A stretch of 63,658 nt of DNA, counting the filler, from Nitrospiraceae bacterium (GTDB taxonomy: Bacteria > Nitrospirota > Nitrospiria > Nitrospirales > Nitrospiraceae): assembly GCA_037442105.1 (NCBI GenBank). It is 3 parts of 3 records of this genome, joined end to end, with 100 filler letters (N's around TTAATTAATTAA, not from the genome) between each part and the next. Parts side by side here need not be neighbours in the genome. Positions count along the whole stretch, not along the records: positions 1 to 28,732 come from JBBIQV010000038.1; 2 more parts are not named here. One strand, given 5' to 3'. This document shows positions 24,001-27,000 of this stretch, piece after piece. Each line of letters starts with the position of its first letter. Positions within the stretch are counted from its first letter, which is position 1. The position numbers are program-made.

Positions 24001-27000
24001 CTCCCGGGGACTGGTCAAAGCGGCTCACTGTGAAGAGCCCCCGCTGGTTGTCGATCCATTTGCAGGCGGCGGCTCGATTCCGTTGGAAGCCTTGCGACTG
24101 GGATGCGAAGCCTTCGCGAGCGATTTGAATCCTGTGGCCTGCCTCATACTAAAGGTCTTGCTGGAAGACATTCCGAGACATGGTCCTGAACTGGCCGAAG
24201 AGCTACGCCGAGTGGGAGCGGAGATTAAAGCGGCGGCTGAGAAGGAACTCGCCGAGTTGTATCCGCCCGATTCAGACGGCGCGATGCCTATTGCCTATCT
24301 CTGGGCCAGAACGGTGCGGTGCGAATCCTCTGGGTGCGGAGCGGAGATTCCGCTAGTCCGTTCGTTTTGGCTGTGCAAGAAAGCGAATAGAAAGCGAGCA
24401 CTGCGTTATCGGGTCGTAGCGCCGGCTTCCAGCCGGCAACTTCCGAACGACACCGTCGCTCGCCGCACCCGCGGCTACCTTCCGCACCTGGAGCGCGACG
24501 GCGGTACCTATTTTGTGACCTTCCGGCTCGCCGGCACTCTTCCGGCACATGTCCTCGCGCGTCTGGATGTCGAGACACAGACCAAAGAGCCATGGACCAA
24601 GCAGGAAACGATCGATGGATGCCTCGATGCCGGTGAGGGCGACTGCTGGCTCCGTGATCCGCAGATTGCTCAGGTCGTCGTCGAGGCACTCCGACACTTC
24701 GACGGCGATCGGTACACGCTGCACGCCTGGTGCGTGATGCCCAATCACGTTCACGTCGTGTTGACCGTCAAGGACGATCTCGCCCGCGTGCTGCATTCTT
24801 GGAAATCCTACACTGCCAACCAGGCGAATCGCCTCCTTGGACGCTCCGGCGAGTTTTGGCAACGGGAGTACTATGACCACTTGGTCCGCGATGAACCGGA
24901 TTTTCACCGGTGCGTGGAGTACACGTTCAACAATGCCGTCAAAGCCGGACTGTGTGATTCGCCGCAAGCGTGGCCGTGGTGTGGGCTGGGCGGGTTGGAC
25001 GTCGAGGACGTTGGGAGCCGGCAGGATGCCGGCGCTACGGAAACCGGCGCGGCGCCACGGATCGAATTCGAACTCTTCGAGCCCAAGAAAGATTCGGAAG
25101 TCCCAAGCGGCACAGTCTCACGCGCCAAAGCCGCCTGTCCGTGCTGCAATGTGGTACTTGCGCCCGAACGCGTCCGAGCGCAGTTGAGCGAGCAGCGCGG
25201 TGGGGCGGACGTGAGGTTCGACCGGAGCGGAAACCGAATCGGAGGCGCTCGGTTGCTGGCTGTGGTGACGCTGCAACCTGGCGAGCAAGGGCGTTTGTAT
25301 CGCCTCCCCAAGGACCGCGACTACGAGACGGTTTGGAAGGCACAGAAGGCCCTCGCCAGGGTTTCAGCTACCAAACTGCCAAACGGTTTAACACCTGTGC
25401 CCGATGAGCCATTGCCGCCCATTGGAACATTGGGCTTCCGCGTTCAACGATATGGGATGCTGCAATGGGGCGACCTCTTCACAGCCCGGCAGAAGCTAGC
25501 GCTGGTGACTCTCGGAGAGGGAGCCGTTGCGCAAACAAAAGGACCGGGAAAGTTATCGTTAGCTTTAGCGATAAGCCGACTGTCTGATTACAGTTCGGCC
25601 CTCACGTCATGGGTGCCAAAGGGCGAATTTATCCGCGGTACGTTTGGGCGCCAAGCTCTTCCGATTGTCTGGGACTTTACTGAGGCGTCTCCTTGGACTG
25701 ATTCTTCTGGAAACCTTGATGGCGCAGTAGACTGGGTCGCCAGGGTTATCGAAGGATTTCCGCTTGGCTGCGGATCAGGTCAGGCTCAAATTGCCGACGC
25801 CTGTGAGTCGCCCTTGCCGGAACATGCAACAGGGATATGGTTTACTGACCCGCCTTATTATGATGCTGTCCCCTATGCCGACCTATCGGATTTCTTCTTC
25901 GTCTGGCTCAAACGAACTCTACCCGGTTACCCGCTTCTTCGCGACCCTTTTGATCCTCGCGACTCCCTGACGCCAAAGGGACGCGAGATCGTCCAGGATG
26001 AAACCAAGGTTGTAGATGGCCGCCCGAAGGACAGACGATGGTTCGAAGACATGATGGCGAAAGCCTTTGGCGCGGGATGTCGAGTACTGAAGGAAGACGG
26101 CATAGGAAGTGTGGTGTTCGCACATAAGACCACAGAGGGCTGGGAAGCGCTGCTATCCGGATTGATAAAAGGTGGCTGGGTGATCACAGGCTCGTGGCCG
26201 ATTGCAACGGAGCGACCAGGCCGTCTTCGTTCTCAGGAATCCGCTGCCCTTGCGACCAGTATCCATCTTGTTTGCCGCCCTCGCACAACTAGTGATACTG
26301 GTGATTGGGGTGAAGTCTACCGGGAATTGCCCGTTCGAGTTGGCGAATGGATCGAAAGACTGCAGTCTGAAGGTGTGCGCGGTGCCGATCTGGTCTTCGC
26401 CTGTATCGGCCCGGCGATGGAAATCTACAGTCGCTACTCGAAAGTCGAGGATGCGGGAGGACGAGAGATCCCGCTTGGCGGTGACCCAACGGCCAGCGAG
26501 CCATACAAACGCGGGTTTCTGGCCTACGTGTGGGAAACCGTTGGCCGTCTGGCGCTTCAGCAAGTGTTGGGAACCGCCGAAGCCAAAGCGCGAAACGGAG
26601 CAGCCGGCGCTCTGGAAGAAGACGCTCGCTTGACCGCGCTGTTCCTGTGGACCCTGCAAAGTACGAACGGAGAGGTTGAGGCTAAGGCTGAGGTCGAGGA
26701 AGAAGAGGCGGATGAAGACGATGAGGAGGAAGAGGAAACCGGCGGGAAGAAGAAGGCCAAGGGCTACACGCTCATCTTCGATGTGGTCCGCCGGTTCGCC
26801 CAGCCGCTGGGGATTCATCTCGATCAGTGGGAAGGGCGGATCATTGAAACCGAGAAAGGGATGGTCCGCCTGTTGCCTGTGAGCAAGCGGGCTGAACAGC
26901 TTTTTGGCGAAGATGGGGCTTCGGCGGTTGCCACGCGGATTGAACGGGAAGCCCGTCGGAATCCTCAAATGACCTTGGAGTTTTCACTGCCGGAAGCGGA

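Follow-up and report, generated by a model that had tools for sequence, protein, structure and literature searches.

A REP-flanked RAYT/TnpA-REP domain in frame within the hmaB methylase gene of a Nitrospiraceae bacterium

The window, the whole stretch of DNA analyzed here, comprises 63,658 nucleotides including filler and joins three contigs of a Nitrospiraceae assembly (2.8 Mb, 62 contigs, 87% complete), the first of which, C38, occupies positions 1-28732. This contig carries hmaA, hmaB and hmaC in one operon, recognized by the PADLOC models HmaA, HmaB and HmaC, with hmaC truncated by the contig end. Its features are listed below, with positions counted along the window.

19342-22803, plus strand: hmaA, SNF2 helicase with a C-terminal NOV_C/DUF3883 nuclease (Pfam; PADLOC HmaA E 1e-171; ORF taken from the first TTG)
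22902-23628, plus strand: nucleotidyltransferase and HEPN gene pair in the gap between hmaA and hmaB (Pfam NTP_transf_2 and HEPN; Met start)
23651-27295, plus strand: hmaB, host of the cassette, 1214 aa (reading frame, Pfam, PADLOC and motifs)
24320-24337, plus strand: first Cys pair (C224, C229) of the four-Cys zinc finger that holds the insert in a loop (invariant in 96 aligned homologues)
25136-25147, plus strand: second Cys pair of the zinc finger (C496, C499; invariant in the same 96-homologue alignment)
27828-28732, plus strand: hmaC, DUF499 ATPase, cut by the end of C38 (Pfam; PADLOC)

The hmaB product matched Pfam DUF1156 at aa 14-63 and PADLOC HmaB at E 1e-107, its closest named homologues are Nitrospira proteins, and both methylase motif I (aa 135) and the DPPY motif (aa 733) are intact. 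By its domains and motifs, HmaB is a Hma/BR-type DUF1156 adenine methylase, with activity and phage defence predicted. The Hma system has been renamed BR (Type-1 BR, DUF499-DUF1156), and the zinc finger of BR methylases has been described (PMC12839542). The operon studied here shares with the published systems the helicase-nuclease, the DUF1156 methylase with a TRD zinc finger, the DUF499 ATPase and the inserted small gene pairs (PMC12839542; PMC11232893). Hma operons are hotspots for added defence genes, and HmaB was dispensable for T4 defence in the sole system tested (PMC11232893). The accessible portion of PMC12839542 makes no mention of HUH, transposase or Vsr inserts. A small gene near hmaB is broken.

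The survey's finding had placed a Y1/HUH domain inside hmaB in one continuous frame, and this was borne out: the frame is stop-free over all 1214 aa, Pfam Y1_Tnp matched aa 354-412, and NCBIfam NF047646 (REP-associated tyrosine transposase, aa 333-444) scored 96-103 bits against a cut-off of 80. On the sequence evidence that follows, the insert is a REPtron, that is, a class 2 RAYT/TnpA-REP gene between two inverted GTAG hairpins, at 24416-25038.

24416-24437, plus strand: left REP with GTAG foot, 7-bp stem and 3-nt loop, translated as part of the left linker (identical copies flank L105)
24464-24991, plus strand: RAYT/TnpA-REP HUH domain, aa 272-447, with H366, H368, W403, Y424 and N428 (profile, 4ER8 alignment and model)
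25017-25038, minus strand: right REP, inverted, with GTAG foot, 7-bp stem and 3-nt loop, translated as part of the right linker

The two 22-nt REPs differ only in a swapped loop-closing base pair. The two inverted 23-bp repeats reported earlier (24415-24437 and 25017-25039) were recovered with 21 of 23 positions complementary, while the 6-bp stem ascribed to them is in fact a 7-bp stem behind the GTAG foot. They occur, as also reported, at these two places only, with no further copy within 3 mismatches in the 2.8-Mb assembly. An inverted pair of this quality, anywhere in the gene, was reached in 1 of 60 codon shuffles of the whole gene. The hairpin pair is on its own modestly significant, and the decisive sequence evidence is the identical hairpins around the nearest free relative, L105.

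The E. coli TnpA-REP structure 4ER8 was the sole PDB sequence match of the insert domain and also its best fold match. Alignment with 4ER8 assigns the HuH motif to H366/H368, the GTAG-reading Trp to W403, the catalytic Tyr to Y424 and the third metal ligand to N428; the earlier assignment of the catalytic Tyr to the helix SWKSYTANQ is thereby corrected. The Pro that usually follows the catalytic Y---N motif is replaced by Ala, and the guest is about 20 residues shorter than its free relatives, a shortened form that it has in common with the guests of P0003, P0007 and P0012 at about 70% identity. The three other RAYT-like ORFs in this genome are 27-30% identical to the guest. No in-frame ATG, GTG or TTG is present from the left hairpin to the start of the domain; the guest therefore lacks its own start codon and, if made at all, is made as part of HmaB. 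Earlier, the length between the repeats had been noted not to be a multiple of three. This was resolved as a net gain of 206 codons (618 nt) relative to empty alleles against a foot-to-foot hairpin span of 623 nt, which places the nucleotide ends approximately; the same-family alleles with available DNA are at most 82% identical and most hold other inserts, so no clean empty site can be read. The missing target duplication is uninformative for HUH chemistry.

In an AlphaFold model of HmaB aa 1-880 the insert blocks have pLDDT 76-96 and the linkers (aa 262-278 and 450-465) fall under 50, in agreement with the survey's finding. The strands on either side of the insert are confident (block pLDDT 88-97), and the motif I region (aa 132-176) is below 50, which makes the model uninformative on the methylase active site. 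The insert lies in the zinc finger between the C224/C229 and C496/C499 pairs, and in this model the guest is folded as a domain of its own on two disordered linkers, in a surface loop at the tip of the target-recognition insert. Run X1, probably the source sample, yielded a Logan contig that matched 24026-25816 without differences and spanned both junctions; the match is a re-assembly check only. No contig of run X1 skipped the cassette, as an excision product or empty allele would. Short left-REP/right-REP joins were seen in run X4, with only 22 letters on one side and probably from other organisms.

Occupancy of the loop was surveyed in the 119 nearest homologues, retrieved with the first 258 HmaB residues so that the query was blind to the insert. 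Of these, 110 were scored, and nine that failed the loop pattern were dropped (four of them look empty). The loop held fewer than 19 residues in 84 alleles, a hairpin-type peptide in 18, a HUH domain in 6 and a DUF559 nuclease in 2, so that an insert was present in 26 of 110; among those scored as empty, three loops of 18 residues look hairpin-derived as well. The 92%-identical Nitrospira homologue that had been taken as the empty site (P0361) belongs to the hairpin class: P0121, a 93%-identical Nitrospira protein of the same length (1034 aa), is not empty and holds a different hairpin insert, a 15-residue peptide, in the loop; the true empty alleles are P0122, P0123 and P0125. P0218 carries the same hairpin pair at the same site and no HUH domain. 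A HUH domain was found in the same loop of 22 other methylases, and another genome of the genus (G002) has a different HUH lineage there, with all seven of its exact REP matches inside the HUH-bearing methylase gene. Junctions vary by several codons among lineages, many with lost host residues, as expected if frame-keeping events were filtered from imprecise ones; a left junction peptide is common to P0001 (the HmaB studied here), P0003 and P0007. That the loop holds a fixed nuclease module, as had been considered, was rejected because the guests there do not form one clade (p-AU 4e-5 for 18 guests; the test used 48 of 214 rows, omitted the four most divergent guests and five others, and compared groups that, like those of the host test below, were chosen after a tree had been seen).

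Trees were built for the host without its loop (126 rows) and for 214 guest domains. P0001 falls in a supported clade of 24 alleles, of which 21 are empty, 2 are hairpin-only and none other has a HUH domain, and its terminal branch is 0.048. In the guest tree the sisters of its guest are those of P0003, P0007 and P0012, followed by the free loci L105 and L106. The hosts of these sister guests are distant from P0001 on the host tree, and a host clade of P0001, P0003 and P0007 was rejected (p-AU 1.8e-7, 40 of 126 rows). At aa 481-500 the flank of P0001 is identical to empty alleles at 17-20 of 20 positions, as opposed to 11-12 of 20 for the sister hosts; both flanks thus follow the empty alleles, so that only the cassette, or little more, was exchanged. 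The two phylogenies and the flanks show the HmaB cassette to be a secondary, recent and lateral gain. L105, the nearest free sister, sits with its identical REPs between hmaA and hmaB, and L015 lies within the NOV_C nuclease domain of hmaA, so the cassette lineage occupies several positions in Hma operons. No near-identical copies of the cassette were found at different sites, and searches of 50,697 phages and 72,556 plasmids gave no close match in the former and one distant match in the latter.

The claim that guests of this kind lie in frame in many unrelated hosts held up at the DNA level for ValRS, PurH, FabZ paralogues, DinG, MenF, DnaE2, HsdR and Eco57I-type enzymes. The DNA examined was from genome assemblies, MAGs or metagenome contigs, and no source was confirmed to be a cultured isolate; one single-contig genome, G563, also has an in-frame guest. 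The 80 metagenome loci closest to the insert include 13 that share a reading frame with a host gene, nine internally (salicylyl-CoA hydroxylase, MenF, type ISP twice, DUF1156 twice, DnaE2, DinG and an Eco57I-type enzyme) and four at the C-terminus (with SpeD and Dtd among the hosts); most of the remaining loci are ordinary REP-flanked genes. A search of proteins of 388-2000 aa resulted in 1210 matches at E <=1e-20 from 3797 candidates. The 120 matches listed include ValRS, LeuRS, AlaRS, MetRS, MetH, IspG, UvrA and RecG by precomputed Pfam labels at the protein level, and some have two guests. By guest-tree labels there are more than 20 kinds of host gene, restriction-modification and Hma hosts predominate among the matches, and database names such as 'adenine-specific DNA methylase/REP element-mobilizing transposase RayT' already label fusions. 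Every guest examined keeps REP-derived flanks.

Within Nitrospirota, 7 of 401 genomes gave a match, and the four best matches lie in frames longer than 1200 aa, namely this hmaB, HsdR and two Eco57I-type enzymes. Frames of at least 500 aa contained 14 of 54 matches in Planctomycetota and 13 of 73 in Acidobacteriota, one of the latter with an internal stop. As a control, IS200 was searched in 121 Planctomycetota genomes, where none of 22 matches lay in a frame longer than 184 aa (Fisher p 0.007, which is overstated because kin and copies are not independent). In genomes drawn at >=90% completeness, the interrupted valS was the only valS above the family cut-off (G851 and G670) and the interrupted purH was the only purH (G773). 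The supposition that all housekeeping hosts are essential fails for fabZ, where the three interrupted copies are paralogues beside an intact gene. Likewise, the supposition that no free relative has a start codon holds only in part: 19 of 43 REP-flanked free loci contain no internal start, and in 31 of the 43 the frame runs open across the left REP; at 14 more loci no upstream REP was found. The guests of MenF (8), each MetH site (4) and ValRS (9) occupy one site each and largely cluster by host, from which many insertions would be old. Host and guest identities correlate for MenF and MetH and not for ValRS (the pairs are not independent, and the nine-row ValRS trees are weakly supported). These guests look long-resident and vertically inherited, which resembles a domesticated RAYT more than a transposon that jumps freely.

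All four catalytic residues (H, H, Y, N) are present in 138 of the 143 guests that lie in long proteins; in four the Asn is replaced by His, and in one a histidine is missing. The median column, by comparison, is 62% conserved. The search favours similar sequences, yet this bias leaves the difference between the catalytic and the remaining columns unexplained. At the HmaB loop the catalytic residues are kept in 27 of 27 guests, and the residue after the catalytic motif is Pro in 128 of the 143 guests and Ala in 8. The guests thus keep their active site inside host proteins, and they may be active in the fusion. G670 has nine RAYT-like loci, among which only the valS guest is flanked by a REP family of 48 copies, which suggests that a nested enzyme can maintain a REP population. 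G773 has 133 REP matches; the REP in question was not found beside the purH guest, and no link is claimed. A genome-wide REP/REPIN population is absent from the genome studied here, with 2 copies in the 87%-complete assembly and no activity visible.

The cassette shares with REPtrons and class 2 RAYTs (4ER8; PMC6006769; PMC8266576) the HuH motif, the Y---N motif, the GTAG-reading residues, the fold and the inverted GTAG-footed flanking hairpins; the REPs of class 2 RAYTs have a GT[AG]G foot, and by motif comparison alone the cassette fits subclass 2.4 or 2.7 in the table of Quentin 2018 (PMC6006769). It differs in lying within a reading frame with no start or stop of its own, in being a recent lateral gain and in having no genome-wide REP population. 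RAYTs, in contrast, are described as extragenic, single-site and vertically inherited (PMC6006769; PMC8266576; 10.1101/2021.07.10.451892) and are treated as housekeeping-like (Bertels and Rainey, 10.1101/2021.07.10.451892; PMC5581495). IS200/IS605 TnpA shares the Y1 HUH fold and terminal hairpins, whereas the cassette has Y---N rather than Y---Q, symmetric GTAG REPs and a single copy. The description of the cassette as intein-like fits its niche and fails on machinery, as Pfam detected no Hint domain on HmaB or the insert and no Rfam intron matched 23400-27500 at E up to 1. IStrons, like inteins, hide a mobile enzyme in coding sequence. Inteins also resemble the cassette in residing in conserved coding sequence, using host expression signals and recurring at a site (PMC8987985), whereas the guest enzyme here is not a homing endonuclease but a HUH nuclease of single strands, and it appears to stay in the mature protein, without splicing. 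Judged on its sequence, the cassette is neither an intein nor an IStron; it has the enzyme and hairpins of a RAYT and is neither extragenic nor vertically inherited. Hairpins translated as host-loop peptides are likewise known from intragenic REPs and Rickettsia RPEs, whose hosts include repair genes, helicases and tRNA synthetases, and the Opitutus GTAG-19 peptide in the supplement of the same study also flanks many guests here (Di Nocera 2013, PMC3733652). Those are inserts of 7-82 residues derived from noncoding sequence and containing no enzyme, as opposed to the 176-aa HUH domain held between the arms here. In-frame REP hairpins are already published; no paper on whole in-frame REPtrons was found in the literature searched, which mostly excludes subscription journals.

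We consider it probable, with modest confidence, that the insert is a whole REPtron of an often gene-dwelling RAYT subfamily that mobilizes itself. In this mechanism the HUH domain would bind the GTAG hairpins on single-stranded DNA and cut beside them with Y424, and strand transfer would carry the unit between the hairpins elsewhere without duplicating the target, in many cases with the loss of a few host codons. The only survivors would be frame-keeping landings in tolerant loops, where the cassettes would use the host promoter and start codon; splicing would be unneeded, as the guest would form its own domain on flexible linkers encoded by the hairpins. From needed genes a cassette could be lost only by in-frame deletion, leaving hairpin doublets such as those observed at this site. 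The lineage would hop locally in Hma operons (between genes, into hmaA and into hmaB) and cross phyla as a passenger of the defence operon, and its spread may be helped by the copying of short tracts between hmaB alleles. TnpA-REP has been reported to cleave REPs and to carry out strand transfer at them (PMC8266576), while RAYT self-transposition was not found in published work (10.1101/2021.07.10.451892); it is by analogy that we infer movement by the cassette's own chemistry.

An unlikely but serious competitor has a REP doublet landing in frame first, with the RAYT later copied or swapped in by host recombination across the hairpins or flanks and kept for its own benefit and the upkeep of REPs, nesting being shelter. 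It would account for the excess of hairpin-only over enzyme-bearing inserts at the HmaB loop (18 versus 8 of 110), for P0218, whose hairpins would be a ready landing pad, and for the clustering of guests by host in MenF, MetH and ValRS; the left junction peptide shared by P0001, P0003 and P0007 suits copying between alleles, and the literature views RAYTs as non-jumping (10.1101/2021.07.10.451892). The copied tract would, however, have to be very short because both flanks follow the empty alleles, the junctions differ between lineages by several codons, many first arrivals would be needed to account for more than 20 host gene types, and the doublets could equally be deletion products. We find it improbable that the HUH domain is a domesticated, optional Hma/BR effector (cutting invading ssDNA, for example) interchangeable with the DUF559 nuclease. 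REP-derived flanks on every guest examined, the polyphyly of the loop guests and the 84 of 110 nearest alleles without a sizeable insert, with 18 more having hairpins only, all speak against this, as do the same guests in ValRS, PurH, FabZ, MenF and MetH, in which no role in defence is apparent. In its favour are the predominance of restriction-modification and Hma hosts, DUF559 in this loop in 2 of 110 alleles, the catalytic residues kept in all 27 loop guests and the status of Hma operons as hotspots for extra defence genes (PMC11232893).

Two further readings were given still less credence. That the copy is a neutral relic, dead or dying and tolerated by a permissive loop or a dispensable methylase, is very improbable: its Pro-to-Ala change, shortened variable region, unspread REPs and broken small neighbouring gene are compatible with decay, and T4 defence had no need of HmaB in one system tested (PMC11232893), yet H366, H368, W403, Y424 and N428 are intact, both hairpins are perfect, and the short form recurs in P0003, P0007 and P0012 at ~70% identity, so that it has persisted under selection. 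Misjoining of the methylase and a free REPtron at the repeats is scarcely credible; although the assembly is incomplete, in 62 contigs, and repeats can misjoin contigs, the X1 contig crosses both junctions without differences, a HUH domain is found at this loop in 22 other methylases, and G563, a genome in a single contig, has an in-frame guest too.

Returning to the self-mobilizing REPtron, a broader proposition is plausible and remains tentative, to the point that we lean slightly against it: such cassettes would form a class of single-strand transposons that move themselves and normally reside in coding sequence. Lacking a start codon, they would serve as permanent guest domains of host enzymes, essential ones among them, would home to recurrent loops as inteins do yet never be spliced out, and would travel across phyla with defence operons and from there seed REP populations. 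Other guests with flanking hairpins in this loop, those of the DUF559 type included, may represent parallel systems. The route by which RAYTs and REPs reach new genomes and the reason for their retention by cells are open questions; in current accounts, RAYTs neither jump nor occur on mobile DNA. The recent arrival of a REPtron at a mapped site with empty, hairpin-only and filled alleles makes mobility directly testable, and the presence of guests in valS and purH genes that have no second copy suggests that nested cassettes lead a stable existence. This habit may have gone unnoticed because long proteins were screened out as misannotations; Quentin 2018 (PMC6006769) set aside proteins of unexpected length as fusions or annotation errors. 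The recurrent loops point to natural sites at which a domain of 200 residues is tolerated, and the use of such fusions as protein-DNA tags is speculative. If the broader proposition is true, it would overturn the view that RAYTs never move and show a route by which they enter new lineages.

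The zinc-finger loop of the DUF1156 methylase HmaB, which in the window houses the HUH guest, is also taken by at least five other hairpin families (metagenome loci L043, L060, L079, L080, L087, L094, L096, and L097; homologous proteins P0121, P0163, P0191, P0202, and P0235). Two alleles carry a DUF559 nuclease between the hairpin arms, and in the loop of P0163 two hairpin families adjoin each other. Some of the hairpin peptides at this site may be linked to GxxExxY or four-helix-bundle genes. At locus L044 (4992-6653), the loop position is occupied by a strongly divergent HUH protein with motifs similar to those of Quentin's class 3, and the hmaB frame terminates early, at 554 aa. 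P0012 is an hmaB that is either partial or frameshifted and houses a sister of the window's HUH guest; downstream of that guest it encodes a PF13366 segment flanked by hairpin peptides. Precomputed Pfam annotations place a PF08719 domain, which we take to be NADAR, in the close homologues P0124, P0133, and P0192.

Downstream of hmaB in the window, a small ORF (27313-27563) precedes a DUF2283 gene. Its frame is interrupted by an in-frame stop at 27439 and changes further on, and one base at 27535 is missing from its relatives in sequencing runs X2 and X3. This ORF looks like a broken toxin gene, the toxin being, we assume, of the DUF4258 type.

Three further RAYT-like ORFs were located in the source genome (G000):

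C8, 20300-20707: RAYT-like ORF
C59, 755-1156: RAYT-like ORF
C48, 7242-7661: RAYT-like ORF

Their frames span 218-291 aa with 27-30% identity to the hmaB insert, and the REP of that insert is absent at all three.

Two separate HUH guests are present within a single protein in P0002, P0004-P0006, P0008-P0011, P0013, and P0014, the hosts being DUF1156, IspG, AlaRS, and MetH proteins. The Asn ligand is replaced by His in the first guest of all four MetH proteins. RAYTs are also fused C-terminally to SAM decarboxylase or D-aminoacyl-tRNA deacylase (loci L112, L128, and L233; L173 and L182), and in these fusions the host contributes only a start to the RAYT.
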